Shown piece by piece: positions 3,100 through 63,321 of a DNA stretch of 64,000 nt. Source of the stretch: an uncultured Candidatus Saccharibacteria bacterium. Its GTDB lineage: Bacteria > Patescibacteriota > UBA1384 > DTJR01. Numbering within the stretch: the first letter of the stretch is position 1; each line of letters starts with the position of its first letter. Location: assembly GCA_964487045.1 (NCBI GenBank), contig CAZAOT010000001.1, positions 151,863-215,862 on the forward strand, read 5' to 3'. Made by a program: the position numbers and the translations under genes. The notes under the pieces were generated by a model. It worked only from the letters and a program-made list of their open reading frames with translations, was not told where the DNA came from and made no database searches.

Positions 3100-3120
3100 A
3101 AAACACTAGAAAAGAGAAAG

Positions 3121-3155
3121 AGCCGCTATGTCGAATGACGTAGCGGCTCTTGGTG
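3121..3155. terminator. Bidirectional hairpin terminator between pnp (+) and the convergent GC-rich gene (-)
   Basis: AGAGCCGCTA-n12-TAGCGGCTCTT stem-loop. Confidence 0.45.
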
Positions 3156-3167
3156 GTGAGGAGCGGA

Positions 3168-4235
3168 CTAGCCCCAACTGATCTTAAGAGCCAGGCGACT
3201 CCTGCGATGCGCAAATGCACTGAAAACCTTTGATAGAGCCTCTGGAACATTAAAGGTTGTTACAGTGCGTTCGCAGTAGAACGCCAGATTCTGACCGTAA
3301 TGGCTGCAGTCAGTATGTGCAGCTAACTCGATCATATCCGTCAGAGAGCGACTGACGCTCGTCCGACTTTCGACCGACGTATAGATTCCGTAGATTGTGT
3401 CTGGAACATCAAGCTCGCGCAGTGTCGCGAACAAGGTCCTAGCGTCGTAAGTAGCACAATTACCGAGCTCGCGTATCTCGTTGCAGAGCAGATCGAGTCG
3501 CTCGGCGGGATCCTCAGGGAGGGGTGCAGGTGTGTCAAAGCAAGGCTGATGCAGTTCGGACCATGCCGCTACTGCGAGGAAAGCAAGAGTCCACCTGGGC
3601 TTCTTGATCAGGGAGTCTTGGACGATGATATAGATAGAACCATCCTCCCTGAACTCGAGATCCTGCAGGCTCTTGTAGGCGTCCTGCAGGAGACCGATCG
3701 CATCCACGTATACGGGGCTGGGTCCAGTCCCACACTGGATGCTCTCGTACTTGGGCCAGCTCTCATCGATACAGAGCTGGTAGAGCTTGCGAATGGGGAT
3801 CTGCTCCAGGTACGGAATCTCAAGCAGGAGTTTATTAAGCTCCGTAGCCTGTTCCTGGGTCATGTGGTTCAAATACCACTGCTGGGCGGCCCAGATAACA
3901 TCGTTCCACTCGTAGCTCGGGTCCGAAAACGGGCCTTGGCAATGCCAGCCGTACTGCGAAGTAGCGAGCTTGATCGCTTGTTCGATCACCATAGAACTCC
4001 TGTGAATCGAATCCACGAGCACAACCACGGTCCGTCTATTGAGCTGTCTTCCGAACAAGATGAGCTGCTCGGCAGGAAACCGCTCCATTTCGGGAGCATT
4101 CGACAGCAGGATCTCGAGCTGCTGCTCGTAGTAGGTCTGGTCGCCGTCTTTGGGCTGATCGGTCATTTCATGTACCTGCTTTCTATCGGCGTTCTTGTTG
4201 AAGCCAGCTACTCGGGCATGTGCAGGTCGCGCCAT
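3168..4235 (-). CDS. hypothetical protein in a GC-rich island (start uncertain; the alternative Met gives ...4169)
   Basis: Long ORF in ~56% GC DNA flanked by ~40% GC genes. No recognisable domain. The antisense ORF 3549..4241 is taken as a GC artefact. Confidence 0.5.
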   Translation of the reverse strand: MARPAHARVAGFNKNADRKQVHEMTDQPKDGDQTYYEQQLEILLSNAPEMERFPAEQLILFGRQLNRRTVVVLVDSIHRSSMVIEQAIKLATSQYGWHCQGPFSDPSYEWNDVIWAAQQWYLNHMTQEQATELNKLLLEIPYLEQIPIRKLYQLCIDESWPKYESIQCGTGPSPVYVDAIGLLQDAYKSLQDLEFREDGSIYIIVQDSLIKKPRWTLAFLAVAAWSELHQPCFDTPAPLPEDPAERLDLLCNEIRELGNCATYDARTLFATLRELDVPDTIYGIYTSVESRTSVSRSLTDMIELAAHTDCSHYGQNLAFYCERTVTTFNVPEALSKVFSAFAHRRSRLALKISWG

Positions 4236-4879
4236 GCCTGAGCTGCGAGCATGATCGGAGGTAAGACATGGAGATAGTGAATCTCGTGCATAATGCCTTG
4301 ACTACGAAGATATAGAATTCCCTCCGCCCGATTCCATTCTCGCCTGAAAGCAGGAGAGAGAACAAGGTAGTACAGCTCAGGGAGTCTAAGAGAAAGAACG
4401 CTTCTATCACCATCGGTTGATGTGAAACCACTGAAGCTAGTCGTCCCAGTGCTCGAGGAGCACTTGAGAAGAGTCGTGAGCGGGAAGCGGTCAGTTGTCG
4501 GAGCGCCAAGAAGCAAGTTGCGTTCCTCTTCATCCAACTCCTGTACCGCTTCGTAGAGAAGCTTGAGCGTGGGGGCGATCACGGCCATCTTCGAGAAACG
4601 GATGGCGACGACTGCTTCCCACCACTTGTCGGCGTAGATGAAGTCATCTATGCCTTCGTGCCTGACTCGGTAGTAGAATGCTCCGCCGAACGGTTCAGGT
4701 ATGATAGTGGTGGTGGTATTCAGCAGCACCTGCAAGACCTCTTCGACAGGGTTTAGCGAGGTCCTGACCAGGATACAGCTGGACAAGCCAGCTTCAACGC
4801 CTGCTTCAGCGAGCTCGGTAGCGGTGATCTCTCGTCTGCCGAGCGCTAGATCAAGAAGCGTCTGTCGGAATTGTTCCAT
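4208..4879 (-). CDS. hypothetical protein in a GC-rich island (start set at MEQFRQ..., behind GGGAGGA RBS)
   Basis: The track ORF 4208..4984 was shortened to the Met preceded by GGGAGGACATTGACATG. The leader upstream is conserved with that of the next gene. Confidence 0.5.
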   Translation of the reverse strand: MEQFRQTLLDLALGRREITATELAEAGVEAGLSSCILVRTSLNPVEEVLQVLLNTTTTIIPEPFGGAFYYRVRHEGIDDFIYADKWWEAVVAIRFSKMAVIAPTLKLLYEAVQELDEEERNLLLGAPTTDRFPLTTLLKCSSSTGTTSFSGFTSTDGDRSVLSLRLPELYYLVLSPAFRREWNRAEGILYLRSQGIMHEIHYLHVLPPIMLAAQAWRDLHMPE

Positions 4880-4950
4880 GTCAATGTCCTCCCATTTTGG
4901 GTGGTTTCTAATGCAAGATTGCATAAGGGGAAATAATATCATTTTTGTAA
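4880..4950 (-). promoter_or_regulatory. Conserved leader copy A, including the palindrome ATGCAAGATTGCAT (4911-4924)
   Basis: About 70 nt aligns with 6104-6175 (copy B): ...CCATTTTGG..TTCTAATGCAAGATTGCATAAGGGGAAATAATATCATTTT.. It contains a 6-2-6 inverted repeat ATGCAA-GA-TTGCAT. Confidence 0.45.
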
Positions 4951-5026
4951 AAAAAAAGAAAGCCACCCAGAGTGCTTGGGGCACGGAGGGTGGCTTGAAA
5001 TCAGTCGCGCAAGTGGACTTGGCCAG

Positions 5027-6103
5027 CTAGTCGGGGTGCTTGGCGAGCCACTGGTTCAGGGCTTCGAACACCTGAATCCAGGGCGAGCCTGCGAGGATAT
5101 AGACCTCGCCGGGCGTGTCGTGGTACCAGATCTTCATGCTGCCGTCAGCTTGAAGATCGCACTTCACGACAGAAGGAGCGATTTCCTCCATGATCTGGAG
5201 GGTATTCAGCACAACCGTCTTGTCGTTCAGCTGGGCCTCGACGTGATCAGACAGACCAGCTATGCGAGCTAGACTACGGATCTCGTAGTAGTCCGGATCC
5301 TCCTGGTCCGGCACCTCATTGAGGTAGTCGAGAAGCGTCTGCATCGTAGGCGCTACCGGCAAGTCGCCTGGTGCGTGCTTAATCGCCCAAAGACGGGCGA
5401 CGAGCAGAACGATGTAGTAGCGCGCCATACTGAGATTGTCCTCACGGATCTCCCAGTGCCCGAGTGGCGTCTCCAGGGAAATGTGCCCTGTCGAGATCTC
5501 GCAAGGGAAAGCGAAGCCGAGGACAAGCTCGATGGCCTTCTCGGCGCTGATGGTCGTATAGCCTTGGCAGTCGCCGTGCACGAAGTGCAGCTTGAAGGTC
5601 CCGCTCTCACAGAGGCGCAGTGCCTCGTTGATGGGGAAATTCTGTAGATCTGCCCACTTCTTGATCTCATCTAGATCGCAGGTGCGGCCAGCTAACTCGA
5701 GCATGCGCTCGAGTTCGTCACGTGATTGCGGAGGTATTTCAGTACCTTTCTGCCCTGTAGGGGCGGGGAAGATTTCGGTCGGGACTGAAATGCCCCGCCT
5801 GATGCAGATGGCGACAAGTGCGTCGCGCCATCGTCCAACCTCGAGCAATGTGCTTTCAAGCAAAATCGCACTAGGCTCCGTTGCCGGAAAACCCATGCGG
5901 TTATTGTAGAGAGCGTCGGCAAAAAGCGTTCGAATCGACCAAGCCTTCTGTTTGGAATTGGGCAGTTTGATCTCCGGGGGAAAGCCAGCCGCGATGCCTA
6001 CTTCGATGATGCGCTCCAGTTGGAACGCTCCACTTTCGCAGGCCTCGCGGCAAAGCTCAGAATACTCCTGCTCGGCTCGCGATTGTTGTTCTCTAGCATC
6101 CAT
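5027..6103 (-). CDS. hypothetical protein in a GC-rich island
   Basis: 358-aa ORF in ~57% GC DNA. The start ATG is preceded by GGAGAAAGTTGACAT, the same RBS context as the neighbouring gene. No recognisable domain. Confidence 0.55.
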   Translation of the reverse strand: MDAREQQSRAEQEYSELCREACESGAFQLERIIEVGIAAGFPPEIKLPNSKQKAWSIRTLFADALYNNRMGFPATEPSAILLESTLLEVGRWRDALVAICIRRGISVPTEIFPAPTGQKGTEIPPQSRDELERMLELAGRTCDLDEIKKWADLQNFPINEALRLCESGTFKLHFVHGDCQGYTTISAEKAIELVLGFAFPCEISTGHISLETPLGHWEIREDNLSMARYYIVLLVARLWAIKHAPGDLPVAPTMQTLLDYLNEVPDQEDPDYYEIRSLARIAGLSDHVEAQLNDKTVVLNTLQIMEEIAPSVVKCDLQADGSMKIWYHDTPGEVYILAGSPWIQVFEALNQWLAKHPD

Positions 6104-14952: not shown

Positions 14953-16005
14953 ATGATGAATATATTTTCTTTTTCCAAATCTGCCCAGCGACAGACCAAA
15001 ATTATCGCTACAATTGGACCGGCTACTTCAAGCGAGTCCGTTTTGAAAAAATTGATGTTAGAGGGCATGGATATTGCCAGATTTAATTTTTCGCATGGTA
15101 CTAAGGAAGAATTTGCGGCATGGGCCAAATTAATTAGAAAGCTAGCCAAAAGGCTTAAAAAAGAAGTTTTGATTTTGCAAGATCTCCAGGGCCCAAGAAT
15201 TAGAGTAGGTAAGCTCAATCATGAGGGACGCCACATTGATTCCGGCCAGGAAGTTAAGCTCAACTTTGGTGATGAATTTCACCGAAATGACATTCCAGTT
15301 CAGACAGACTTAGAAGTTGCACTCAAAAAGGATCATACGATTTTGATCGATTCTGGACTAATCGAATTAAAAGTTAAAAAAATTGAAGGCAAGAGAGTTG
15401 TCTGTAAAGTAATTGTTGGTGGGGCGCTTCACTCAGGCAAAGGATTGAATTTTCCTGACACTCCAACTCAAGAGGCTTTCACTCAAAAAGACGAAGAAGA
15501 CTTGGCTTTTGGTCAACAAATTGGAGTTGATATGGTTGGTCTTTCATTTGTGGAAAATGCCCAAGATATTATTTCCTTAAGAGAAAAAATCTCAGCAAAG
15601 ACAAAAATTGTATCAAAAATTGAAAGGCCTCAGGCAGTTCATAATTTCGCTGAAATTTTAGATGTATCTGATGCGATCATGGTTGCTCGTGGTGACCTTG
15701 GCGTTGAGATACCGATTGAGAAATTACCATTTTTACAAAAAAGAATTATTAGAAGGTGCCGAACTGCAAACAAGTTTGTGATTGTTGCTACCGACATGAT
15801 GGCTTCGATGGTTTCTTCACCGAGACCAACCAGGGCTGAAGTGCTGGATATCGCAAATGCAGTTCTCGACGGTGCCGATGCAGTTATGCTTTCAAACGAG
15901 ACTGCGGTAGGAAAATATCCTATCCAGACTATTTCGACAATGCGAAAGATCGTCGAAGAAACAGAAAATTTCAAAAAGTCTCAAGAACTATCGAGTTTGC
16001 TCTAA
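14953..16005 (+). CDS. pyk: pyruvate kinase, short form lacking the C-terminal allosteric domain
   Basis: KIIATIGPAT..., MVARGDLGVEIP, and MLSNETAVGKYP motifs. It is 350 aa versus ~470 typical. Confidence 0.9.
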   Translation: MMNIFSFSKSAQRQTKIIATIGPATSSESVLKKLMLEGMDIARFNFSHGTKEEFAAWAKLIRKLAKRLKKEVLILQDLQGPRIRVGKLNHEGRHIDSGQEVKLNFGDEFHRNDIPVQTDLEVALKKDHTILIDSGLIELKVKKIEGKRVVCKVIVGGALHSGKGLNFPDTPTQEAFTQKDEEDLAFGQQIGVDMVGLSFVENAQDIISLREKISAKTKIVSKIERPQAVHNFAEILDVSDAIMVARGDLGVEIPIEKLPFLQKRIIRRCRTANKFVIVATDMMASMVSSPRPTRAEVLDIANAVLDGADAVMLSNETAVGKYPIQTISTMRKIVEETENFKKSQELSSLL

Positions 16006-16164
16006 GCCATACGATTGACTTGGCAAGTACTTTGTGCTACGCTAGAATGCACTTAAGCACATTTATATGTGTGATCATGGTTTCAAGCTAAAGAGCTGGG
16101 AGGGCTCAGTTAGCTGAAGCTAGGCAGTGTACGAACAGCTTGTCCACCATTGGAGGGTGATTTG

Positions 16165-16404
16165 ATGTCAGATGCTTTCGCGATCGATGGAGTCGGTCCT
16201 GAGCTGGAGTTGAAGCTTGATCCTGACGAGGTATCGAGGGCATATCGCCTCGCGATCCGCCACGTCAAGAAGCAGGAGAGCAGGATCGCACGCCACGCGA
16301 AGAGATCGGCAGTGAAGAGTCGCAAGCTGCCACCCCGTACTCGGGGAGGCGAGGGAGTATTCCGGACGGCGCACGCTGTCCGGGCTGCAAGTCCGAGGCG
16401 GTAG
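16165..16404 (+). CDS. hypothetical small basic protein (GC-rich island)
   Basis: ATG 7 nt after GGAGGG. ~60% GC. Arg/Lys-rich C-terminus. Followed by a hairpin. Confidence 0.35.
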   Translation: MSDAFAIDGVGPELELKLDPDEVSRAYRLAIRHVKKQESRIARHAKRSAVKSRKLPPRTRGGEGVFRTAHAVRAASPRR

Positions 16405-16420
16405 AACCGCCTCTACATGA

Positions 16421-16452
16421 GAATCTGGCCGGTGGGGAGCTCACGCTCCGCA
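16421..16452 (+). terminator. hairpin terminator
   Basis: GGCCGGTG-n16-CACCGGCC followed by TTTTCT. Confidence 0.4.
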
Positions 16453-16545
16453 CCGGCCTTTTCTAAAGATCATTTATTAAAATTAAAGTAAAAGAAAGCC
16501 GCCTCAAAGAGGCGGCTTGGGGTGTCATTTAGTTCGTGCCGATTG

Positions 16546-17421
16546 CTACTCGAGCCAATCGCGCATCCGAGCCATCGTTTGATCGATGGCGTTGTTGGTG
16601 GGGATCTTGCCCTGTGGGTCGGGATACCCGAGGTACTGGCAAGTTTCCTCGTGCGACCAGCTGCATATTAGCTGTCGAAGCGCGACGTACAGTGCGCAAA
16701 AACGTCCCATCTGACTGATCCGCCAGACATGGTAGAATCCGATCGCATTTTCGGAACAATGAACGTACTCGGCCTCATTGTCAAAGCGTTCGTCTGGGTG
16801 AAACTGGCTCTCGCAGTAGTTCTGGGCGAGAGTTGTCAGTAAGCCATCTGCGATGACTTGCTTGCGACAATCGGGGCAGGAAGCGAGTGCTTGGTAGGCA
16901 CGTTCGCCTTGTCCCCGCCTAATCTGGCTCTGACATAAGATCCACAGCCAGTGCCAGCAGTCGCCACCTAACCATTCGGGTTCTTCGATGTCAACTCCTC
17001 CTGGGTATGGGTGGTCAAGGTTATAGTATCCAAATGAAAGATGGGGGCGGTCACAGAGATGCTGCGCTTCTTCTACAGTGAATTCAGCCGGGCCGTTGAA
17101 AGCGAAATGTACGTCATTCAGGTCGCCGATGAGATCGGCGAAAAGCTCCATGACAGGAGAAGCCAGAATTAGCCGCTCGGTCAGGCCACGCAAGCGCGCA
17201 CTGGCGCGAGCCATGGGCCAGAAAAAGCCAAGTCGTCTTGTCGCCGAGATAGTCGGCTTGTGGTGGCCGAGCCCCTGGTCACCGGTCTTAGCCCGAACGA
17301 ACGCTTCTCGGAATGCTTCCACTGGCGCCCCATTCATTGCTAAGTCATGGATGACATACCAGGCGAAGTGGATCGGAGTTGTAAACCCGTTTTCTAGATT
17401 CTCGCTTTGCACGTGCATCAC
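16546..17421 (-). CDS. hypothetical protein (GC-rich island)
   Basis: 291-aa ORF in ~57% GC DNA. No recognisable domain. The hairpin AAGCCGCCTC-aaa-GAGGCGGCTT lies just past its 3' end. Confidence 0.5.
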   Translation of the reverse strand: MMHVQSENLENGFTTPIHFAWYVIHDLAMNGAPVEAFREAFVRAKTGDQGLGHHKPTISATRRLGFFWPMARASARLRGLTERLILASPVMELFADLIGDLNDVHFAFNGPAEFTVEEAQHLCDRPHLSFGYYNLDHPYPGGVDIEEPEWLGGDCWHWLWILCQSQIRRGQGERAYQALASCPDCRKQVIADGLLTTLAQNYCESQFHPDERFDNEAEYVHCSENAIGFYHVWRISQMGRFCALYVALRQLICSWSHEETCQYLGYPDPQGKIPTNNAIDQTMARMRDWLE

Positions 17422-17558: not shown

Positions 17559-17793
<235 letters not shown>

Positions 17794-17893
17794 AATAGCC
17801 ACTAAAGGCTATTTTTGTTATATTTAGGCGAGATAAAAAGGAGACAATATAGATCTTAATAATATTAAATTAAATCCACCCCTTGAGTTTATT

Positions 17894-28638: not shown

Positions 28639-28908
28639 TCCTCGGTAGCTCAATGGCAGAGCGGGTGCCTGTGAACCTTAAACGCAGCTTTCCGTCAAAA
28701 GGCGGATTGAAACTTCTTGGGATAACGGTGAAGGCTAAGTCGAAAGATATGCTAATACCGTGGGAACTCCAATTTGGAGAGCGCCGTAGAGACTAGATAC
28801 CAAGATGCCTAAATCGAAAGATATGGCAAAGATATAGTCCACGCCACTAGAAATAGTGGATTAAGTGTAAGCACTAGGTTGCAGGTTCGAGTCCTGCCCG
28901 AGGAGCCA
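28639..28908 (+). tRNA. tRNA gene split in the anticodon loop by a ~195-nt group I intron; isotype unresolved (anticodon region reads CT..TGTAA/GTTAA, so Thr or Asn are candidates)
   Basis: Acceptor TCCTCGG pairs with CCGAGGA, followed by G and CCA. D-arm GCTC-AATGGCA-GAGC. T-arm GCAGG-TTCGAGT-CCTGC. Anticodon stem halves GGTGC (28665-69) and GCACT (28871-75) are separated by the intron. Confidence 0.75.
28674..28868 (+). ncRNA. group I intron (approximate boundaries) inside the tRNA anticodon loop
   Basis: It contains the S element AAGATATAGTCC (exact consensus) and the R/P7 element AGAGACTAGATAC, which gives the P7 pair GACTA/TAGTC. There is P4-like pairing AAAGGCGG / GAGCGCCG. No ORF inside. 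Confidence 0.65.
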
Positions 28909-29160
28909 TGAAAATACTCAAGCAAATTGCTTGAGTTTTTTCATAACTTGGGAAAAGGACTCGATACCTGAGTGCGCAATGCGACGTTCATATAAAAAAC
29001 TATTGTCGCATAGGTTTCCTGCCCGAGGAGCCAAAAGAAAACAGATCACGTAAGTGGTCTTTTTTCTTTTGATTTTTGGGAAAAGGACTCGAACCAGATG
29101 CGAAGTCCTGCTTGCCACTCCGTAGCTTAATAGCGAAGGGTGGCCCGAGGAGCCATGAAA
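28909..29160 (+). repeat. two further tandem copies of the tRNA 3' end (CCTGCCCGAGGAGCCA at 29018 and 29143), each preceded by an inverted T-arm copy and hairpins
   Basis: The unit is TGGGAAAAGGACTCGA(T/A)..., where GGACTCGAACC is the reverse complement of the T-arm GGTTCGAGTCC. GAGCCATGAAAATA is repeated after two copies. Hairpin terminators at 28917-28945. Confidence 0.55.
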
Positions 29161-29241
29161 ATAATTACTATTCTAACCAGTCAGTTGATTGTTTATATGG
29201 CTGGAAAATGGTATTTTATAAGTAATAAATAGATTGAATAA

Positions 29242-31502: not shown

Positions 31503-33224
31503 ATGGCACAAGATATAACTTGCAAACAATGTCAGGCTAGATTTGAAGCTACCGACGATGATATCGCGTTTTTGGATAAAATTTCCCCCGTGCTTGATGG
31601 AAAAAAGTATCTGATTTCTACGCCAAAACTTTGTCATGAGTGTAGGCAAATTCGCCGCTATTCATGGAGAAATGAAAGACACCTTTATAAAAGAACTTGT
31701 GATCTTACCGGCGAGCCTATTATTTCGATCTTCTCACCGGATAAGCCATTCAAGGTTTATTCAAACAAAGCTTTTCAGTCAGATGGATGGGATCCACTCG
31801 AATATGGTCGCGAATTTGATTTTAATAGGCCATTTTTTGAGCAATTTAGAGAGCTTCTGGAAGCTGTTCCACGCCAAGCCAATAGCTCAATTTTTAATGA
31901 GAATTGTGATTATTGTAATCAGGCATGGCACTCAAAAGATTCGTACATGTCCTTCAATCTAGGATATGGAGAAAGATGTTTTTACTCAAATGAATCTTTC
32001 TATGTGAAAGATTGTGTCGATACCTTTGATATCAGGCATTGTGAATTTTCTTACTCACTATACGATTGTGATAATTGCAATTCGTGTTCATTTCTTGAAA
32101 ACTGCAAAGATTGCTCAGAGAGTCATTTTTCTTATGACTCGGCTGGTTGTCAAAACATAATTCTGTCGAATGGTCTAAAAAATAAGCAATATTACATTCG
32201 AAACGAAAGTTTTTCCAAGGAAGATTACTTTGAGAAGCTGAAAGAATTAAAAATGTACACCCACTCTGGTCAAGCCGAACTTAAAAAAGAATATGAAGAG
32301 TTAAAGAAAAATGCGATTCACCGGGCAAATCATAATTTGAAGAGTGAAAATTGTACCGGTGACTACATAATCGAATCAAAAAATTGCAGGCAGTGTTTTA
32401 ATATCTTTAAGAGCGAAAACTGTGTGAGAATAGGAAATATCGATGATGCTGGTAGAGACTCAAGAGATATGAATTACACTGCCGAGATGGAACTATGCTA
32501 TGAAGGAGCTTCAATCGCTGGTTACAAAAATATCTTCGGTGTGTTTATGGCATATGGAGAAAATAATTATTACTGCAACTTCTGCGAATACTGCAAAAAT
32601 TGTTTCGGATGTGTCGGTTTGAGGCGAAAAGAGTACTGCATTTTTAATAAGCAATATACCAAAGAAGAATACGAGCAATTATTCGCTAAAATAATTGAAA
32701 AAATGCAAGAAACGGGTGAGTGGGGCGAATTTTTTCCTATCTCAATATCCCAAGTAGCTTACAACGAATCAGTCGCTCAAGATTATGCTCCAAAAACCAA
32801 AGAGGAGGTAGAAGCTATAGGCGGTTATTGGCAAGACAACTTCTACGAGAGTGAATTTACTGGGGAAACTTACGAGCCCAAGGACGATATACATGAATAC
32901 ACAAACAATGAGGAAGAGACCAAGAAGCTACTTGCTGGGGTAATTAAATGTGAGAAGTCTGGCAAACCATTTAAAATTTTGCCACAAGAATTTTTATTTT
33001 ATATCAAGAACAACATTCCAATTCCAACGGTTCATTATAGTGAAAGATTCAAGGAATTATTCAGACTGAGAAACCCACGAAAACTTTTCGAGCGACAATG
33101 CGATTGCGATCGTAATGGACATGGTCATGAAAGCCGCTGTCCGAACAAATTCGAAACGACCTATTCTCCAGATAGGGAGGAACAGGTATACTGTGAGCAG
33201 TGTTACCAAGCGAGCATTTTATAA
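31503..33224 (+). CDS. Cys-rich protein, paralog A (573 aa; N- and C-terminal zinc-ribbon-like modules, two internal C-x2-C repeat halves)
   Basis: 17 nt after the ATPase stop. About 40 Cys. N-terminal CKQC..(27)..CHEC. The motif YCNFCEYCKNCFGCVGLRRKEYCIFNKQYTKEEY. C-terminal C..C/H..C..C cluster. Confidence 0.7.
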   Translation: MAQDITCKQCQARFEATDDDIAFLDKISPVLDGKKYLISTPKLCHECRQIRRYSWRNERHLYKRTCDLTGEPIISIFSPDKPFKVYSNKAFQSDGWDPLEYGREFDFNRPFFEQFRELLEAVPRQANSSIFNENCDYCNQAWHSKDSYMSFNLGYGERCFYSNESFYVKDCVDTFDIRHCEFSYSLYDCDNCNSCSFLENCKDCSESHFSYDSAGCQNIILSNGLKNKQYYIRNESFSKEDYFEKLKELKMYTHSGQAELKKEYEELKKNAIHRANHNLKSENCTGDYIIESKNCRQCFNIFKSENCVRIGNIDDAGRDSRDMNYTAEMELCYEGASIAGYKNIFGVFMAYGENNYYCNFCEYCKNCFGCVGLRRKEYCIFNKQYTKEEYEQLFAKIIEKMQETGEWGEFFPISISQVAYNESVAQDYAPKTKEEVEAIGGYWQDNFYESEFTGETYEPKDDIHEYTNNEEETKKLLAGVIKCEKSGKPFKILPQEFLFYIKNNIPIPTVHYSERFKELFRLRNPRKLFERQCDCDRNGHGHESRCPNKFETTYSPDREEQVYCEQCYQASIL

Positions 33225-33241
33225 TATAGCTAGGAGTTGAG

Positions 33242-34960
33242 GTGGAAAACAAAACGTGTAAGCAATGCAGCGCTGATTTCGTGGTAGTGGATGAGGATCT
33301 TGAATTCTACAAAAAAATGTCCCCGACATTTAATGGAAAAGTCTATGATTTACCGGCTCCCGATTTTTGTCCTGATTGCCGAGATAGTCGAAGGTTGTCA
33401 TTTAGAAACGAGAGATCGCTTTATAACCGCAAATGTGACAAGACAGGAAAGCAAATAGTATCTATCTATTCTCCTGATAAAACCGATTATAAAGTTTTTG
33501 AAATTGCCGAGTGGTATAAGGATGACTGGGACGCCATGGAGTACGGTCGCGACTTTGACTTTAATAAACCATTTTTTGAACAATTCGATCAGTTGATGAA
33601 AGATGTCCCTAGACTTTCTTTATTCAATACAAATACCGAAAATTGCGAATATGCGAATTTTGTTGAGGGTGTTAAGAATTGCTATATGACAATGGTGACA
33701 TACTATGGCACAGAAAATTCACATTTTTGCTACAGAACCTACCGCTCAAAAGATAATTTAGACATCAATTTTGCCGAAGAACTGCAGAAGTGTTATGAGT
33801 GTGTGTTTACTACAAAGTCGTATAATTGCCGATACGGAATTAGATTAAATAATTGCCGGGATTGTGCTTTTTCAGTTGATCTAACAGGATGCAATGACTG
33901 CTTCATGTGTTCCAATCTAAGCAGGAAACAATACTGCATTAGGAATAATCAACTGACAAGAGAAGAGTATGATCGACAAATGGCCGAATACGATCTAGGA
34001 TCATTTGAAACTGTTGAAAAATTAAAAAATGAATTTGAACAATTGAGAATTGATTCGCCGGTTAAGTTTGCAAACCTGACAAACTGTGAAGACTGTATCG
34101 GTGACGATATGCATGACTGTAAAAATGTGAAGTATGGCTTTAATACTTTCGAGTCTGAGAACTGCAAATATATTATGGGCGAGAAGGCAAAGAATGTGAT
34201 GGATAGCCGAGGAGGAGGGTATGAATGGTGCTATGAATGCAACCATACTGGACTAGGGGCAAATCATATTATGTTCGCAAGCGGAGTAATCGGCGGCTAC
34301 AACATGACCTATTGCGAGACCTGCCATGGTTGCCATGATTGCTTTGGCTGTGTGGGACTTAGAAAGAAAGAATACTGCATTTTTAACAAGCAATATACTA
34401 AAGAGGAATACGAAAAAAAGGTTGCTGAAATTATTGAAAAAATGCAAGCAGATGGCGAGTGGGGACAGTTTTTCCCAAATGGTACCAGCCCCTTCGGCTA
34501 CAACGAAACAATCGGAAACAGACTTTTACCGCTAACTCGCGAAGAAGCCATTAAGCGTGGTTTTAAGTGGCAAGAAAAAGAATTTGATATTGAATTCAGT
34601 GGGGAATTTTATACTCCAGCGGATAATATAGCCGATTATGCTGATGAATCAAAACAAAAAGAACTTCTTACTGCCGTGTTAAAATGTTCAGATTCAGGCA
34701 AGCCATACAGGATAATGCCGCAAGAACTAGCTTTTTATCTAGACAATAAAATTCCTGTTCCGAGAAAGCATTTTGAAACGAGATATGGCGATCGTCTAAA
34801 ATTAGAGTTTGTTCGAAAAATTCATGATAGGCAGTGTATGTGCGAGGAGCCGGGGCATGGTCATGAGGGCAGATGTCAGGAAAAATTTGGAACAACTTAT
34901 GGACCTGATAGACCGGATAAGGTGTACTGCGAGAAGTGTTATCAAAGTATTGTTAAATAA
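33242..34960 (+). CDS. Cys-rich protein, paralog B (572 aa)
   Basis: Collinear with A and C: CKQC..CPDC, RNERSLYNRKCDKTG, YCETCHGCHDCFGCVGLRKKEYCIFNKQYTKEEY, C-terminal HGHEGRC..YCEKCYQ. Confidence 0.7.
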   Translation: MENKTCKQCSADFVVVDEDLEFYKKMSPTFNGKVYDLPAPDFCPDCRDSRRLSFRNERSLYNRKCDKTGKQIVSIYSPDKTDYKVFEIAEWYKDDWDAMEYGRDFDFNKPFFEQFDQLMKDVPRLSLFNTNTENCEYANFVEGVKNCYMTMVTYYGTENSHFCYRTYRSKDNLDINFAEELQKCYECVFTTKSYNCRYGIRLNNCRDCAFSVDLTGCNDCFMCSNLSRKQYCIRNNQLTREEYDRQMAEYDLGSFETVEKLKNEFEQLRIDSPVKFANLTNCEDCIGDDMHDCKNVKYGFNTFESENCKYIMGEKAKNVMDSRGGGYEWCYECNHTGLGANHIMFASGVIGGYNMTYCETCHGCHDCFGCVGLRKKEYCIFNKQYTKEEYEKKVAEIIEKMQADGEWGQFFPNGTSPFGYNETIGNRLLPLTREEAIKRGFKWQEKEFDIEFSGEFYTPADNIADYADESKQKELLTAVLKCSDSGKPYRIMPQELAFYLDNKIPVPRKHFETRYGDRLKLEFVRKIHDRQCMCEEPGHGHEGRCQEKFGTTYGPDRPDKVYCEKCYQSIVK

Positions 34961-34972
34961 GGGAGTTGAAAA

Positions 34973-36673
34973 ATGTCAGAGCAGAAACATTGTAAAGTAT
35001 GTGCTAAACAATTTACAGTTGAAGATGAGGACCTAGAGTTCTACAAAAAAATGTCACCGACTTTCGCGGGCGAGACCTTTGAATGGCCAGCGCCGACTCA
35101 TTGTCCCGATTGTCGAGCGGCAAGACGCCAAGTCTGGAGGAACGAAAGACATTTATATAAAAGAAAATCCGATAAATCAGGCCGAGATATCGTATCAATT
35201 TACCCACCAGAAAGAGCTGATTACAAAGTATTTGCTATCGATGAGTGGTGGGCGGATGACTGGGATGGCACGCAATATGGAATCGACTGGGATCCAAGCA
35301 AACCCTTTTTCGAGCAATTTGAGCAGCTTCTAAAGACCGTTCCTCGCCAAGCACTCTATAACACGAAGACTGAGGCTTGTGAATTCTCAAATTACATTGC
35401 CGAATGCAAGAACTGTTATATGACGACAGTCACTTTCTATAAAACAGAGAATACACATTATTCATATTTCGCCTATCAGTCAAAAGACAATGTGGACATA
35501 AGCTTCTGTAATGAATCAGAACTGGGTTATGAGCTTGTCGATGGAAATAAATGTTTTAACTGCCGATATTCCAATCGTCTAGAGAACTGTCGAAATTGCT
35601 ACTTCTCCCAAGACCTAATTGGCTGTAGCGACTGTATCTTATGTGACAATTTGCGAAACAAGCAATACTGCATTGAGAACGAGCAGTTAACTCAAGAAGA
35701 ATATCAGAAGAGATTAAGCAAAATGAACTTCGGTTCTAAGAAATTTGTTGATGAATGCCTCGCAAAGTACGAAGCGATGCGCTCAAACAGCATTGTAAAA
35801 TTTGTAAACACAGTAAAATGCGAGAACTGCCAAGGCGACAACCTGAGAGAGTGCAAGAATGTTAAGAAAAGCTTTTCTTCGCTTAGAGTTGAAAACTCGC
35901 GTTACTGCCTTGATCAGGAAGACGGCAAGAATATCTGGGATTCGGAGGGGGGCACTTATGAGTGGGCTATTGAAGTTAACCATACTGGGTTTGGACAGAC
36001 TTTCGTAGTCAACTCGAGCGTATTTTACTGTAACTTCATGTATTACTGTGAGAGCTGTTATAGCTGTCGGGACTGCTTTGGTTGTGTGGGGCTAAGGAAT
36101 AAGCAATATCATATATTTAACAAAGAGTATTCCAAAGAGGAATATGAAAAAAAGGTTGCTGAGATAATTGCCAAAATGCAAGAAACAGGTGAGTGGGGAG
36201 AGTATTTTCCATTTTCACTTTCGCCCTTTGGCTATAACGAAACCTTGGCTTATGATCATTTCCCGAAAACCAAAGAGGAAGTATTGGCGATGGGGTGTAA
36301 ATGGCAAGAGGATGATCATTCGCTTCAATATAGTGGTCCGTTTTATGAACCAGATGATGACATAAAGGTTTATCAATCAGATGAGAATAAAGCCAATGAA
36401 CTTTTGCAGGGAATCCTGAAGTGTGAAAAAAGCGGTAAGCCGTTTAAGATTATGCCTCAAGAACTGGCATTCTATCTGAAAAGCGGAATTCCAATTCCTC
36501 GCAAGCATTATGATGTCCGGTTCTATGAGAGGTTTAATGTCAGAAACCCCAAGCACTTTTATCATAGAAAATGTATGAACGAGGGATGCGGCAATGAGTT
36601 TGAAACAACTTATGCACCGGAAAGAAGCGAAAAGGTCTATTGCGAGGAGTGTTATCAGAAGAATGTTGGCTAG
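34973..36673 (+). CDS. Cys-rich protein, paralog C (566 aa)
   Basis: Collinear with A and B: CKVC..CPDC, RNERHLYKRKSDKSG, YCESCYSCRDCFGCVGLRNKQYHIFNKEYSKEEY. Confidence 0.7.
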   Translation: MSEQKHCKVCAKQFTVEDEDLEFYKKMSPTFAGETFEWPAPTHCPDCRAARRQVWRNERHLYKRKSDKSGRDIVSIYPPERADYKVFAIDEWWADDWDGTQYGIDWDPSKPFFEQFEQLLKTVPRQALYNTKTEACEFSNYIAECKNCYMTTVTFYKTENTHYSYFAYQSKDNVDISFCNESELGYELVDGNKCFNCRYSNRLENCRNCYFSQDLIGCSDCILCDNLRNKQYCIENEQLTQEEYQKRLSKMNFGSKKFVDECLAKYEAMRSNSIVKFVNTVKCENCQGDNLRECKNVKKSFSSLRVENSRYCLDQEDGKNIWDSEGGTYEWAIEVNHTGFGQTFVVNSSVFYCNFMYYCESCYSCRDCFGCVGLRNKQYHIFNKEYSKEEYEKKVAEIIAKMQETGEWGEYFPFSLSPFGYNETLAYDHFPKTKEEVLAMGCKWQEDDHSLQYSGPFYEPDDDIKVYQSDENKANELLQGILKCEKSGKPFKIMPQELAFYLKSGIPIPRKHYDVRFYERFNVRNPKHFYHRKCMNEGCGNEFETTYAPERSEKVYCEECYQKNVG

Positions 36674-36808: not shown

Positions 36809-37270
36809 ATGCCCAAGAGGAAGCAACCGAACTTTCGCAAGGCGCTTCAGCTGATGCTTAGCTACATCTTTGAGCACCAGTTGGTGGTCAATGATGTGGT
36901 GTTTATGCTCTCGACCGATGTAATGCTCAAGAATCCTCTGATCGTGCAGACGCTTGAAGAAGCAGGGTGCATTGAGCGTCTTGGTAGGCTGTCTCTCACA
37001 ACCCAGGCCAAGTTCAACAGAGCTTACCCTGGCTGCATGAGAGCAGTTCACGACAAGGCGCTCCAGAAGTTCCCGAAGATGAAGTGCCCATGGGGACATT
37101 GGATTTGGGTCGTTAATACGACCCGTTATGACCAGATGAATCCACATCTTCTGCTGTCTCGTCCGCTCCTTGAGCAAGTCGAAAGGCTCTATGGTAAGGA
37201 CACGCAGGTTAGAGCTGTTGACGAAGAAGATCGTCCGACGGACGAGAAGCCATGGCGGGCTGAGCCGTAG
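36809..37270 (+). CDS. hypothetical protein (GC-rich island)
   Basis: 153-aa ORF, ~55% GC. The RBS-like GGGAAGGGACTGAGG precedes its ATG. The antisense ORF 36737..37177 is judged spurious. Confidence 0.4.
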   Translation: MPKRKQPNFRKALQLMLSYIFEHQLVVNDVVFMLSTDVMLKNPLIVQTLEEAGCIERLGRLSLTTQAKFNRAYPGCMRAVHDKALQKFPKMKCPWGHWIWVVNTTRYDQMNPHLLLSRPLLEQVERLYGKDTQVRAVDEEDRPTDEKPWRAEP

Positions 37271-37400
37271 AAGCTAAGAGAAGATCGCACAGGCGCCCGA
37301 AGCAAGATGCGTTGCATCATGCGCAGGGCGCCTTTCCTGTTGCAAAAATCTTAAAATAGTTTAACAATACATCTACTACGCGGGCAAAGGAGGCTCAGGC

Positions 37401-37493
37401 ATGTATTACAAGCCAGTCGTTAGCCGGACTCTCGTGCACCATGAGTGGACGGCTGCGATCCTGGACAATTTGGTCCCACCTCTGCCACCGTAG
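37401..37493 (+). CDS. possible 30-aa peptide ORF (GC-rich, strong RBS AAAGGAGG)
   Basis: ATG 8 nt after AAAGGAGG. Very weak otherwise. Confidence 0.15.
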   Translation: MYYKPVVSRTLVHHEWTAAILDNLVPPLPP

Positions 37494-37533
37494 ATGGGCC
37501 ATAGGCCCACCGGGGAGCCTTGCTCCTCAAAAA

Positions 37534-37560
37534 GGCGCCCCGTCACTGCGGCGGGGCGCC
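37534..37560. terminator. GC hairpin terminator (bidirectional)
   Basis: GGCGCCCCG-n9-CGGGGCGCC followed by TTCTCTCTTT. Confidence 0.45.
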
Positions 37561-37585
37561 TTCTCTCTTTAATCTTATCTAGTTT

Positions 37586-38194
37586 CTATTTGGCTACTTC
37601 ACTAATAGTGATCGATGCTGTCTTTGCTGTTGAGTCGGTTGAGAACAATACTTCCCAATCAACATGTGCCATTTCTGTAGTTCTGACGTTGTCAGTGTTT
37701 AGCTGCTCCTTGGTCACAAAGCCGGCTCTTTGAAGATCCTTCTGATATTTTTCATAAGCATCAGAATCAACCTGTTCAAATGTGATTGTCCAGCCCGCAG
37801 GCTCTGTGGTTGCAAGTGATCCCGTGACATTACCATAGGTAAATTTTGGTACTACACTCGGTGTGCTATCTGGCCATTTTGATGATCCAAGCTCCACACT
37901 TCCGTCCTCTCCGGTCACTTTGACAGAGTTGTCACTCGAATTTATATCAACTTTTCCGCCTGTTGCGGCTCCGATAAGACTTTCTGCACCCTTTTCAGCA
38001 ATCTTGCCAGCGAAGTATTTTGTTGCGATATAACTACCAATTCCTAGTACCGCTAAAATTATAACTATTATAATAATTGCAGTGGTGCAGCCCTTATTTC
38101 CACCACCTGAACTTTGCGATGAACTAGTGCTAGATGACGCAGCTGGTTTAGCAGGTTCTGCTTTTGGTTGCTCGGTCTTAATTTCTTCAGCCAT
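37586..38194 (-). CDS. membrane-anchored extracytoplasmic protein of unknown function
   Basis: N-terminal Ser/Ala-rich linker, a single TM (IIIIVIILAVLGIGSYIA), and a ~130-aa domain. Confidence 0.55.
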   Translation of the reverse strand: MAEEIKTEQPKAEPAKPAASSSTSSSQSSGGGNKGCTTAIIIIVIILAVLGIGSYIATKYFAGKIAEKGAESLIGAATGGKVDINSSDNSVKVTGEDGSVELGSSKWPDSTPSVVPKFTYGNVTGSLATTEPAGWTITFEQVDSDAYEKYQKDLQRAGFVTKEQLNTDNVRTTEMAHVDWEVLFSTDSTAKTASITISEVAK

Positions 38195-38436: not shown

Positions 38437-38757
38437 AAGAGTGACTAGTTTTCCACAGGCAAGCGTGACCAACCCGAACAAACTTACATAACTTAACTTC
38501 GATATAGAGTAAGTTATATAACATTTTGATAATCTATATAACATATTTGACAAGTCGCACGCTTGATGGTTCTATGGATTTACATTAAATAAGTGTGAGA
38601 TGGGTAAGCGCGGTTAAATACCGTCACAGTCCCGCTACCGTAAAGTCGGAAAACCACTCATACATTCATCCCGAGGAGGAATTATGCAGCATACTTAGGT
38701 GTTTTTTAACTAGCTCAAAAGAGCTTTTTTTAGTCTCTTAAAAATATAAGGAGTAAA

Positions 38758-47177: not shown

Positions 47178-47206
47178 TTGAAAAACAAGCCTTATCGGGT
47201 TATAAT
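47178..47206 (+). promoter_or_regulatory. sigma70 promoter TTGAAA-17-TATAAT for the tRNA
   Basis: -10 ends 11 nt before the tRNA 5' end. Confidence 0.5.
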
Positions 47207-47217
47207 CATTTTGTTTT

Positions 47218-47292
47218 CGGCCTGTAGCTCATTGGTAGAGCGACGCTCTTATAAGGCGTATGTAGATGGTTCGATCCCATCCAGGCCGACCA
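47218..47292 (+). tRNA. tRNA-Ile (anticodon UAU as encoded), CCA encoded
   Basis: CGGCCTG / CAGGCCG acceptor, anticodon stem ACGCT/GGCGT (one G.U), loop CTTATAA, T-arm GATGG-TTCGATC-CCATC. Confidence 0.75.
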
Positions 47293-47508
47293 AACTTCGC
47301 TTCTCCGAAGCTTCGCTTGGCAAGCCACGTATGTAGCCTTGAATGGGCTATTTTATTTATATTTGGATCGCCTTGGCGGGATCGAAGGGCGGAGCTCGAC
47401 GGAGCGAGCCCAGGCCTGGAGGCGAATTCAGCAGAATTCGACCGGAAGGCGATCCCATCTGTAATCGATTTTTCAGTAGAAATTTACTGAATTGCGATCC
47501 CATCCAGG
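47293..47508 (+). repeat. tRNA-trailer element: conserved hairpin motif (47293-47327), then a GC-rich segment ending in a 13-nt direct repeat of the tRNA 3' region (GATCCCATCCAGG, 47496-47508)
   Basis: GATCCCATCCAGG at 47273-85 and 47496-508. GGATCGCC...GGCGATCC long-range pairing (47378.. / 47449..). Confidence 0.45.
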
Positions 47509-61947: not shown

Positions 61948-62364
61948 ATGAGATTAAAGATTTTTACTGATGGCGGATCCAGGGGAAATCCAGGGGAGGC
62001 GGCAATTGGAGCGGTTATTTTAAATGATGAAAATGGCGTTCGTTTGCAGGAAATTTCTCAGTGCATAGGAGTTGCAACTAATAATATTGCTGAATATCGG
62101 GCGGTACTTGAGGCGTTAGAGTGGGTAAGGGATAATCAGAAAGCTGATGAAATTGAGTTTTTGGTTGATTCTGAATTGATAGGCAAGCAACTAAGTGGTC
62201 AGTATAAGGTTAAAGATCAAAATTTAAAAATTATATATTTAAAAATTAAACAGATCATATTTGAGCTTGATATCAAAGCGTCGTACACAATTGTAAGAAG
62301 AGAGAAAAATGCTGAGGCAGACGCCTTAGTTAATAAAGCTTTGGATGAGAGACTAAATAAGTAA
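61948..62364 (+). CDS. rnhA: ribonuclease HI
   Basis: IFTDGGSRGNPG, EYRAVLEALE, D..E..D catalytic residues. Confidence 0.9.
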   Translation: MRLKIFTDGGSRGNPGEAAIGAVILNDENGVRLQEISQCIGVATNNIAEYRAVLEALEWVRDNQKADEIEFLVDSELIGKQLSGQYKVKDQNLKIIYLKIKQIIFELDIKASYTIVRREKNAEADALVNKALDERLNK

Positions 62365-62412: not shown

Positions 62413-62489
<77 letters not shown>

Positions 62490-62777
62490 GATTTATTAAT
62501 TGGCGCCATGGGCGCCATTTAATAAAGACTTGGGAGCGTGAGGATTCGAAAGCCGGAGCGCGACGGCGCCGCGTTTCGGGGGTGGAACCCGAAACTATAC
62601 CAAAAGAATAATCACGGGGTCGAGCGCGATTTCAGCATTTTCGAGGGTGGAACTCGAAAATCACAATAATCGAATGAATATCATCGACGCGTGACCGAAT
62701 CCGGTTCGTTTACAGCGGGTCGAGGATTCGAAATAGTAAATAGTTTTTTGCTCCACTCAAAAAACGCCCCGCTACCA
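62490..62777 (+). repeat. GC-rich ~275-nt insert after tRNA-fMet ending in a direct repeat of the tRNA 3' end (CCCCGCTACCA at 62767-62777)
   Basis: Begins with the palindromic GGCGCCATGGGCGCC. Two hairpins share the loop GGTGGAAC (TTTCGGG..CCCGAAA and TTTTCGAG..CTCGAAAA). GGATTCGAAAG appears at both ends (62530, 62729). The head is about 85% identical to the 17648 insert. Confidence 0.5.
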
Positions 62778-63019
62778 AACTTCGTTTCTTCGAAACTACG
62801 CTTGGCAAGCCAGATTTTATGGAGAAAGAGGATTTGAGTCTAAAAGCGGCTTAGAGCGCTTTTTTTGTTAGGAGCGGGGTTTACCCCGTAAAGTATTTTA
62901 AGCATCAAGGGGGTTGTACGGTCTAATAAATCATGTTTGTTGGTAAGGCAAGTTTTATATTAAAATATACTAACGGGGTTTACTTTATAGGTTCAAAATA
63001 GTAGAATAATTTGGAAAAA

Positions 63020-63060
63020 GGTAGTGTAGCTCAGTTGGTTAGAGCGAAGGAATCACCCCG
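63020..63060 (+). pseudogene. tRNA 5'-half fragment (duplicate of the first ~36 nt of the downstream CAU tRNA)
   Basis: GGTAGTGTAGCTCAGTTGGTTAGAGCGAAGGAATCA matches the downstream GGTAGCATAGCTCAGTGGTAGAGCGAAGGAATCA. There is no T-arm or acceptor 3' strand. Confidence 0.45.
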
Positions 63061-63071
63061 TTAATTAATAT

Positions 63072-63146
63072 GGTAGCATAGCTCAGTGGTAGAGCGAAGG
63101 AATCATAACCCTTAGGTCGGAGGTTCGAGCCCTCCTGCTACCACCA
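63072..63146 (+). tRNA. tRNA with CAU anticodon (elongator Met or lysidine-Ile2), CCA encoded
   Basis: GGTAGCA/TGCTACC acceptor, loop ATCATAA, T-arm GGAGG-TTCGAGC-CCTCC. Flanked by the inverted repeats CCCCGTTAATTA (63057-68) and TAATTAACGGGG (63152-63). Confidence 0.85.
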
Positions 63147-63321
63147 TAATATAATTAACGGGGCAAGTAACCCTTGGTCACAGGCATGTCCCGTAGAAAC
63201 CGCTTCTGTAATAACACTATGTAATAGGTTTTACAGAAAGGAGTTCTACTGGGATTCGAATCATATGGAACTAGTTCGTTAATCGAACTATAAATTAATA
63301 TTTAAGGTTAATTCTTACATC

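Follow-up and report, generated by a model that had tools for sequence, protein, structure and literature searches.

The window examined here is a stretch of 64,000 nucleotides (nt) from contig CAZAOT010000001.1 of an uncultured Candidatus Saccharibacteria bacterium (assembly GCA_964487045.1, forward strand, positions 151,863 to 215,862). It carries ordinary cellular genes, among them those for DnaG, pyruvate kinase, L,D-transpeptidase and parts of a type IV pilus, and has a GC content of about 39%. Three of its four tRNA genes (tRNA-Ser, tRNA-Ile and tRNA-Met) are followed by a structured non-coding element, here designated E1, and a second element, a 35-nt trailer motif designated E2, is found at the tRNA-Ile and tRNA-Met loci. 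The trailer of tRNA-Ile is a stack of these two elements, both of which are lineage-specific and tied to tRNA 3' ends.

The order of features is the same at the three E1-bearing loci. Each tRNA gene is followed by a hairpin, a GC-rich block and finally its own tail repeated in direct orientation, over 22 nt for tRNA-Ser, 14 nt for tRNA-Ile and 11 nt for tRNA-Met (Table 1). The GC-rich blocks share the core GGATTCGAAAGGCGGAG-GCGC-GACG-GCGC..., and the E1 covariance model, R1, recovers exactly three copies in the window, the one at tRNA-Met being a local match to an expanded variant. The Ser copy is absent from the first-pass annotation, an earlier reading of this DNA, which had described in the tRNA-Ile trailer a 13-nt repeat of the tRNA 3' region and a GC-rich, tRNA-like stem. 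The repeat is real, measures 14 nt and is accompanied by an inner copy; the two strands of the stem, GGATCGCC and GGCGATCC, are also present, but they are the arms of the helix closing a conserved three-way junction and not part of a tRNA-like stem. The Ile copy folds like the Ser copy and lies downstream of both E2 and a terminator-like hairpin that resembles the terminator after the Ser copy.

A structural alignment of 43 copies defines E1 as a three-way junction with a core of about 71 nt, closed by a helix between an antisense segment (A') and a sense copy of the tRNA tail (A2). Reading from the tRNA, whose own tail is segment A, the layout is a spacer hairpin, A' (the reverse complement of A), a 57-nt two-arm core and A2, for an overall size of about 110-290 base pairs (bp). 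A2 usually runs from C56 to the tRNA end plus 0-4 nt. The closing helix P1 pairs GGAWTCG with CGAWTCC, and the junction strand AAR leads into P2 (GSC/GSC, with a GGA/GA internal loop), which is closed by the hairpin P2a with the loop CGACGG; the junction strand GGG then leads into P3, a helix of about 15 bp with an invariant G.U pair, a bulged A and an ANYA loop. The 29 core pairs of these four helices are 95-100% paired, with double changes at 14 of the 15 pairs of P3. The covariation score is 0.423, as against 0.161 after shuffling (0 of 500) and 0.08-0.13 when the partners are slid. G.U pairs far outnumber A.C pairs (75 against 6) and therefore the folding strand is the tRNA-sense strand. 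The 5' strand of P1 always complements the local type of T-loop, as A:U in 22 copies and U:A in 21, at a variable position, and follows unusual T-loops as well, such as GCAAGTCC and CAAGTC. Some P1 helices (L036, L049 and L067; surveyed loci carry the prefix L) are made from the tRNA end and trailer instead of the T-loop, and the three-copy logic is kept there.

E1 variants include copies with extra hairpins, a duplicated P2 domain or a second class of P3, and a few stand-alone copies after terminators. In the composite form the P2 domain (GSC-GGA-hairpin-GAG-GSC) is doubled around an extra hairpin to give a four-way junction, as seen at L076 (5921-6048), L038 (7-99), L018 (7649-7781) and L035 (6016-6155). 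The hairpins with GGTGGAA loops inserted in the window's Met copy have covarying stems, and the tRNA-Gln copy of L040 contains this sub-motif as well. Stand-alone relatives of the core, with no tRNA near, are found at L011 (1148-1220) and L022 (5645-5720); their closing helices show no relation to a T-loop, and the copies are placed either behind terminator-like hairpins or within a convergent gap.

With up to three mismatches allowed, the 35-nt E2 motif AACTTCG.TTCT.CGAA.CT.CGCTTGGCAAGCCA occurs only twice in the window, at both places where the first-pass annotation had reported it; one copy abuts the CCA of tRNA-Ile and the other the repeated tail of tRNA-Met. Shuffling the window 100 times gave 0 copies. 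The invariant CGCTTGGCAAGCCA of the motif is a palindrome of 11 nt that is unable to fold by itself. The two copies are identical at 31 of 35 bases, and their stems, GCTTC/GAAGC and GTTTC/GAAAC, do differ in a compensatory manner, although the two changes counted earlier are two substitutions within a single base pair. In a set of 18 distinct copies, taken from the window and from metagenomes, 96.7% of the 5-bp hairpin is paired and four of its five pairs show double changes; its covariation score of 0.485 (0.245 when shuffled) was reached by none of 500 shuffles.

The strict E2 pattern gave no match in the metagenomes. The search that worked left the hairpin free and returned 35 metagenomic loci, about 10 of them chance or coding matches. 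The remaining copies, about 25, all abut a tRNA CCA, a 3' end resembling that of transfer-messenger RNA (tmRNA) or a repeated tRNA tail, the tRNAs being those for Lys, Ala, Val, Leu, Ile, Arg, Met, Ser and Glu, so that the proposed link of the motif to tRNAs holds, and the wide spread in other contexts that would have refuted it was not seen. E2 is a lineage-specific repeat abutting the CCA of many tRNAs and tmRNA. Many copies run on for about 45 nt, with CGAAGTT pairing with the initial AACTTCG and a second hairpin, which weakly suggests a longer fold. A long form of about 80 nt was observed at L104, L110, L113, L114, L117, L120, L124, L126, L127 and L133; here AACTTCGC and, further downstream, GCGAAGTT are paired, after which comes a TGYCC..GGRCA hairpin, and several copies from one sample have more than 100 nt more in common downstream, behind different tRNAs. 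At L130 and L131, tRNA 3' fragments from the anticodon stem on are fused to a common upstream sequence, with E2 still following (the fragments lie upstream of E2 at L130 5054- and L131 312+); these junctions look like the attR of a larger element integrating at the anticodon loop.

The relative placement of the two elements is informative. In the metagenomic locus L123, tRNA-Arg (ending ...CGATTCCTTCCGCGGGTACCA) is followed by a spacer hairpin, TGGTAC..GGAATCG, the core, the same 21 nt again and E2. The Met locus of the window is laid out in the same way, with E1 between the tRNA and E2 and ending in an exact tail copy. Therefore E1 arrived by insertion, and E2 is the pre-existing trailer that it displaced. 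The earlier proposal that the E2 motif is a conserved core adjoining a target-site duplication is not borne out, as the duplication belongs to E1. Tandem or truncated E1 units also occur. Two of the E2-bearing metagenomic contigs carry E1 too, and no relative of E2 was found among the 92 loci of the E1 survey.

That survey searched one genome per species with an exact pattern, the first 25 nt of the E1 core. About 80 of the 92 loci are from metagenome-assembled genomes (MAGs) of Patescibacteria, or candidate phyla radiation (CPR), labelled Saccharibacteria, Paceibacterota/Parcubacteria, Kaiser-, Campbell-, Nomura-, Collier- and Berkelbacteria and Minisyncoccia, with Microgenomates also named. 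The matches outside the CPR, about 11, score at most 24 bits with R1, as against 70-104 bits for canonical CPR copies, and are chance matches in GC-rich DNA. In this sample E1 is shown to be restricted to Patescibacteria. A same-strand tRNA end lies 13-105 nt upstream of E1 in 64 loci. The tRNA repeat is found about 71 nt past the module start, begins at C56 of the T-loop (CGAATCC or CGATTCC) and reaches the tRNA end, often going 1-4 nt further; it is exact over 17-23 nt in about half of the loci. Three tmRNA-like 3' ends also carry E1 (L017, L036 and L077). R1 detects 116 copies in 81 CPR loci, 92 of them within 300 nt downstream of a tRNA or tmRNA, and the tRNAs represent at least 34 anticodon species, most commonly Trp-CCA, Ser-GCU, Arg-UCG and Val-GAC. 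About one in five of the remaining tRNAs in these loci also carries E1, in a sample biased by the picking of each locus for having one copy. Among 2.9 million viral contigs (IMG/VR), a stricter core pattern had no match, and a loose one had six, all by chance in GC-rich DNA.

E1 is a concrete new family of RNA (or single-stranded DNA). It is conserved in sequence, absent from Rfam and, across about 80 sampled species, found behind tmRNA and behind tRNAs of at least 34 anticodon species. The idea that E1 and E2 are mere lineage-typical tRNA trailers or terminators with no specific role, their repeats produced by local slippage, is already disfavoured and in our estimate extremely improbable. 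Terminator-like hairpins do belong to many spacers, and E2 is placed where a trailer would be; against this stand a chance expectation of 0 for E1 as for E2, covariation together with conserved unpaired bases, and the fact that in about 80 genomes the same core is shared by no fewer than 34 different tRNAs.

A further alternative treats E1 as a scar, the leftover att region of integrase-driven islands that entered the tRNA T-loop and lost their cargo. The block of identity from the T-loop to the tRNA 3' end, the use of tmRNA and the tandem arrays are reportedly the classical signature of tRNA-integrating elements, in the T-loop sublocation class, and the E2-bearing contigs L130 and L131 do contain larger elements with tRNA fragments that resemble an attR. 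A scar, however, would not keep a 57-nt core with helices paired at 95-100% and invariant loops across Saccharibacteria, Paceibacterota, Microgenomates and Berkelbacteria. No integrase open reading frame (ORF) lies inside or beside the window copies and, as noted, the core pattern is missing from the viral contigs; we hold this explanation to be very unlikely.

The antisense arm A' is situated at the 3' end of the spacer, just upstream of P1, and reaches its most extreme form in L055/L018 as a perfect 21-bp palindrome centred just after tRNA-Arg. A' was copied from DNA, because it complements the discriminator and the genomic trailer and not the CCA. Three derivations were ruled out. The arm is not the tRNA's own 5' strand, as would be left by a tandem tRNA copy with its middle deleted, given that it complements the discriminator and genomic trailer; nor was it copied from mature tRNA in the manner of a retrovirus primer, since its complement includes the trailer and excludes the CCA. 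The P1 5' strand is not a duplicated T-loop, for GGAATCG pairs with CGATTCC but differs from it. Past P1 and about 3 bp more, the distal 12 positions of A':A2 are 50% paired in register. The distal parts erode independently: A' is perfect and A2 worn in L055 and L095, and the reverse is seen in L028, L029 and L043.

Such a helix recalls the stacked acceptor and T arms of a tRNA. E1 might be read as a gene for a stable trans-acting tRNA-like RNA, in which A':A2 would mimic this 'minihelix' of the neighbouring tRNA, with the junction replacing the T-loop; it would be excised by tRNA-processing enzymes and act elsewhere, for example as a decoy or handle for tRNA-binding enzymes. A2 ends exactly at the tRNA 3' end, discriminator and, if encoded, CCA included, often with a terminator next. 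In L009, L097, L098 and L014, additional hairpins separate the acceptor-like part of A' from the T-like part, so that the outline resembles a cloverleaf, and the core is highly conserved across phylum-level lineages. The half-paired and often decayed distal helix is nevertheless hard to reconcile with this role, a mimic has no need to copy the neighbouring tRNA, and Rfam gave no tmRNA or YrlA match to E1. We consider a trans-acting RNA quite improbable.

Minimum free energy (MFE) folding of whole precursors, from the tRNA through A2, paired the tRNA tail with A' in 31 of 36 loci and the acceptor 5' strand with the distal copy A2 in 26 of 38, at a median of 7.8 kcal/mol below 'tRNA alone plus E1 alone'. 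The modelled folds show A' as a real competitor for the tRNA 3' half, with A2 as its alternative partner.

This alternative pairing bears on the possibility that E1 is a host cis-regulatory, riboswitch-like switch of three strands, with the junction as sensor of a ligand or protein and P1 as the switching helix. Where P1 is stabilised, the upstream tRNA would fold and be processed; otherwise A' would invade the T-arm and acceptor 3' strand, and the tRNA would be trapped or mis-processed. Besides the pairing predicted in 31 of 36 loci, the switch draws on an aptamer-like anatomy (P1 closes two arms, the junction and loop bases are invariant, hairpin insertions are tolerated and copies occur in tandem), on the constant match of the P1 5' strand to the local T-loop type, unusual ones included, and on the three-copy logic retained where P1 is built from tRNA end and trailer (L036, L049 and L067). 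It is weakened by the terminator-like signal before A' in 24 of 60 loci, by the independent decay of distal A' and A2, and by the patchy presence of E1 at only some tRNAs. In addition, exact target duplications and truncated tandem units resemble products of insertion, the stand-alone copies after terminators or in convergent gaps have nothing obvious to regulate, and no ligand is known. We regard such a switch as unlikely.

The syntenic loci also enter this comparison. The tRNA-Trp loci include a syntenic set of 14, in which flanking proteins are 40-90% identical and every locus has E1. In the close pair L053/L085 the differences in P3 are compensated. Between L053 and L059, A, A' and A2 co-vary, a point in favour of the switch; it points to selection in place, gene conversion or re-insertion. 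E1 copies at different tRNAs of one genome may have near-identical P3 helices, and the comparison of P3 similarity within and between genomes comprised four usable pairs only.

Table 1. Position and composition of the features at the tRNA-Ser, tRNA-Ile and tRNA-Met loci of the window
Feature	Position	Strand	Remarks
tRNA-Ser(GGA)	17559..17647	+	ARAGORN; Rfam
E1, Ser copy	17681..17795	+	R1 82.3 bits; repeat D16
A', Ser copy	17681-17707		TTTGGCAAGAAGGACG..GGATTCG; core next
A2, Ser copy	17774-17795		exact 22-nt tRNA-tail copy
Terminator after Ser copy	17794-17813
Promoter-like site of tRNA-Ile	47178-47206		promoter scan 11/12
tRNA-Ile(UAU), CCA encoded	47218..47292	+	ARAGORN; Rfam tRNA 67 bits
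Segment A, tRNA-Ile from C56 of T-loop on	47272..47285	+	CGATCCCATCCAGG; exact 14-nt repeat at 47495-47508
E2, copy 1	47293..47327	+	AACTTCG, hairpin, then CTTCGCTTGGCAAGCCA; abuts CCA of tRNA-Ile(UAU)
Terminator-like hairpin between E2 and E1	47333..47361	+	GTAGCC..GGCTAT and T run
A' antisense arm, Ile copy	47364..47384	+	two nested partial complements of tRNA tail: GGATCGCC (47365-47372) and P1 5' strand GGGATCG (47378-47384)
E1 three-way-junction core with P1, Ile copy	47376..47458	+	R1 69.4 bits, E=4e-16
Second arm of closing helix, Ile copy	47448-47455		GGCGATCC
A2 inner, Ile copy	47450..47459	+	CGATCCCATC; 10-nt sense copy from C56, P1 3' strand
Decayed AT-rich duplicate, P3 loop through A2	47472..47508	+	repeat family D8; ends in outer 14-nt tail copy
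tRNA-Met(CAU), initiator-like	62413..62489	+	C1 opposite A72; ARAGORN; Rfam
E1, expanded Met copy	62490..62777	+	R1 26 bits local; L040 is the same variant
Spacer hairpin, Met copy	62490-62527
A', Met copy	62530-62548		P2 domain next
Inserted hairpins with GGTGGAA loops	62573-62595; 62638-62660
GTGAC|CGAATCC segment, Met copy	62691-62702		GTGAC followed by CGAATCC
Truncated second unit, Met copy	62724-62734		GGATTCGAAAT
Distal tail copy, Met copy	62767-62777		CCCCGCTACCA; 11-nt repeat of tRNA-Met 3' end
E2, copy 2	62778..62812	+	directly after repeated tRNA-Met tail
Terminator after E2, copy 2	62842-62863

Several other features were observed in the window. At 63020-63056, shortly before an intact tRNA-Met (63072-63146), is the 5' half of a tRNA-Met paralogue, which extends as far as the anticodon CA. 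An inverted repeat flanks the intact gene (CCCCGTTAATTAAT at 63057-63070 and ATTAACGGGG at 63155-63164), and the region 63020-63164 resembles a further rearrangement or junction at a tRNA gene. An AdoCbl-II (cobalamin) riboswitch aptamer was detected at 38592-38664, its 40.7 bits exceeding the Rfam gathering score. The region 31503-36673 contains three paralogous ORFs in tandem, each of about 570 aa; the repeat period is about 1735 nt, and blocks within it are 60-80% identical at the DNA level. At 28892-29164 the 26-nt TCCTGCCCGAGGAGCCATGAAAATAC occurs three times at a spacing of about 123 nt, upstream of an ORF starting at 29242. Blocks with a GC content of 0.50-0.57 (3001-6000, 16001-17000 and 37001-38000), as against about 0.39 elsewhere, may represent foreign or unusually composed genes.

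The reading that we tentatively favour, at somewhat less than even confidence as a whole, is that E1 is a structured element derived from insertion, with the 3' ends of tRNA and tmRNA genes as its targets, and that its junction and P1 are kept against the harm that A' can do. Confidence is high in its descriptive part, namely the architecture, the tail duplication, the site between the tRNA and its native trailer, the tandem units, the confinement to Patescibacteria, the covarying junction on the tRNA-sense strand and the retention at syntenic loci. E1 would spread, or would once have spread, via a folded single-stranded intermediate, either RNA or top-strand DNA, in which the A':A2 duplex would copy the target and the conserved junction would serve as a handle for a trans-acting enzyme. 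Once inserted, E1 would be co-transcribed with the tRNA, wholly or by read-through, and the antisense arm would become a hazard able to capture the tRNA 3' half. Selection would then keep the junction and P1 intact, and we propose that the compensatory evolution seen in place arises because selection in this way holds A' away from the tRNA.

A number of points weigh against this account. Co-transcription is not assured, because a terminator-like hairpin separates the tRNA from E1 in 24 of 60 loci; one follows A2 in 12 of the 60. The pairing of A' with the tRNA comes from nearest-neighbour MFE predictions, which leave out tRNA tertiary structure and co-transcriptional folding. Covariation and tolerance of G.T would fit RNA but would fit single-stranded top-strand DNA equally, and the co-variation of A, A' and A2 at the Trp loci could be explained as well by a host-selected switch as by re-insertion. 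No enzyme, autonomous copy or empty-site polymorphism was found, no search having been aimed at a partner enzyme, and the only near-identical contigs, which bear exact copies of two window proteins and belong to the same strain, have the same intergenic length. Finally, we know of no mechanism that writes an antisense and a sense copy of a target around a fixed core.

A bolder version of the switch makes E1 a sensor RNA whose expression platform is the tRNA itself: the junction would bind a metabolite or protein and stabilise P1, thereby gating the capture of the fresh tRNA 3' half by A'. We consider this rather unlikely. If true, E1 would gate the maturation of particular tRNAs and of tmRNA in Patescibacteria, and would be the first riboswitch-like device to act on a tRNA and not on an mRNA. 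If E1 is mobile, it represents a new mode of tRNA-tail targeting that writes antisense and sense copies of its target; a regulatory E1 would show that a structured trailer is able to gate tRNA maturation in cis. Much of bacterial diversity belongs to the Patescibacteria, whose genomes are tiny and which have seen almost no experimental study. R1 is a practical tool for annotating E1. Contig ends fall at E1 and E2 in several assemblies, so both elements may be partly responsible for breaks in assembly at the tRNAs of CPR MAGs.

In a scan of the window against Rfam 15 at gathering score, only tRNAs and AdoCbl-II passed, with no family for E1 or E2; a permissive scan of the Ser copy gave as best match 17 bits to an unrelated family with a threshold of 42.5 bits. 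The literature searched yielded no description of E1. The hammerhead, twister, pistol, hatchet and hepatitis delta virus (HDV)-like ribozymes had no match to E1 even at E up to 10, and the E1 junction strands (AAR, GGG and 0 nt) differ from the CUGANGA/GAAA of the hammerhead. Checked by eye only, the GGA/GA loop fits neither a hammerhead nor a kink-turn. Retron non-coding RNA also has inverted arms around two hairpins, but no reverse transcriptase ORF lies next to any of the three window copies; a protein with an RVT_3/RNase H domain is encoded at 61948-62364, upstream of tRNA-Met only.

The tRNA-like domain of tmRNA, YrlA and viral tRNA-like structures share with E1 a helix resembling the acceptor and T arms that ends in a tRNA 3' terminus. 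In E1, P1 and about 3 bp are kept and A2 reaches the tRNA end; it differs from these RNAs in copying the sequence of the neighbouring tRNA, in having a junction in place of the T-loop and in a distal helix that is often decayed, with 12 positions half paired. Repetitive extragenic palindromic elements (REP/REPIN) and miniature inverted-repeat transposable elements (MITEs) are, like E1, short, non-coding, hairpin-forming and extragenic at the 3' ends of transcription units, with several copies per genome that are similar within a genome. E1 does have inverted arms, but unlike the terminal inverted repeats of those elements they are derived from the target, copying the local tRNA; its targeting of tRNA tails is strict, and its core is asymmetric and of the same sequence across very distant lineages.

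Riboswitch aptamers built on three-way junctions, such as those for purines and thiamine pyrophosphate (TPP), resemble E1 in their closing P1, invariant junction and loop nucleotides, variable covarying arms, tandem arrangements and a P1 strand with an alternative partner, and E1 has the conserved fold backed by covariation that characterises them. In contrast to riboswitches, E1 lies 3' of tRNA genes and not in mRNA leaders, its predicted alternative partner is the tRNA itself, and it has no known ligand or Rfam match. The stand-alone modules were ruled out as mRNA leaders, being located at 3' ends or in convergent gaps.

Integron attC sites and the CTX-phage attP(+) hairpin, used by XerCD, likewise have inverted target-like copies flanking a loop, a single strand that folds, a structure conserved above its stem sequence and, after integration, the order sense ... 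antisense - loop - sense. They are sites used by recombinases, and E1 is likened to them from its sequence and predicted fold; its stems copy a different tRNA at each locus and its loop is a highly conserved 57-nt two-arm junction. Integrative elements that target tRNA and tmRNA genes, such as tyrosine-integrase islands and prophages, insert just 3' of an intact tRNA as E1 does, leave a direct repeat that begins in the T-loop and passes the tRNA 3' end by a few bases, use tmRNA as well and form tandem arrays. The tRNA 3' repeats expected at both ends are present in E1, at 22 nt for Ser, 14 for Ile, 11 for Met and 21 in L123. An integrase and cargo between the repeats were not found, and no ORF of at least 80 aa is attributable to the window insertions of 110-290 bp. 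E1 further differs from these islands in its antisense copy of the target and in a conserved, covarying three-way junction that is retained at syntenic loci. In kind, E1 is related to both tRNA-targeted insertion elements and structured RNA motifs.

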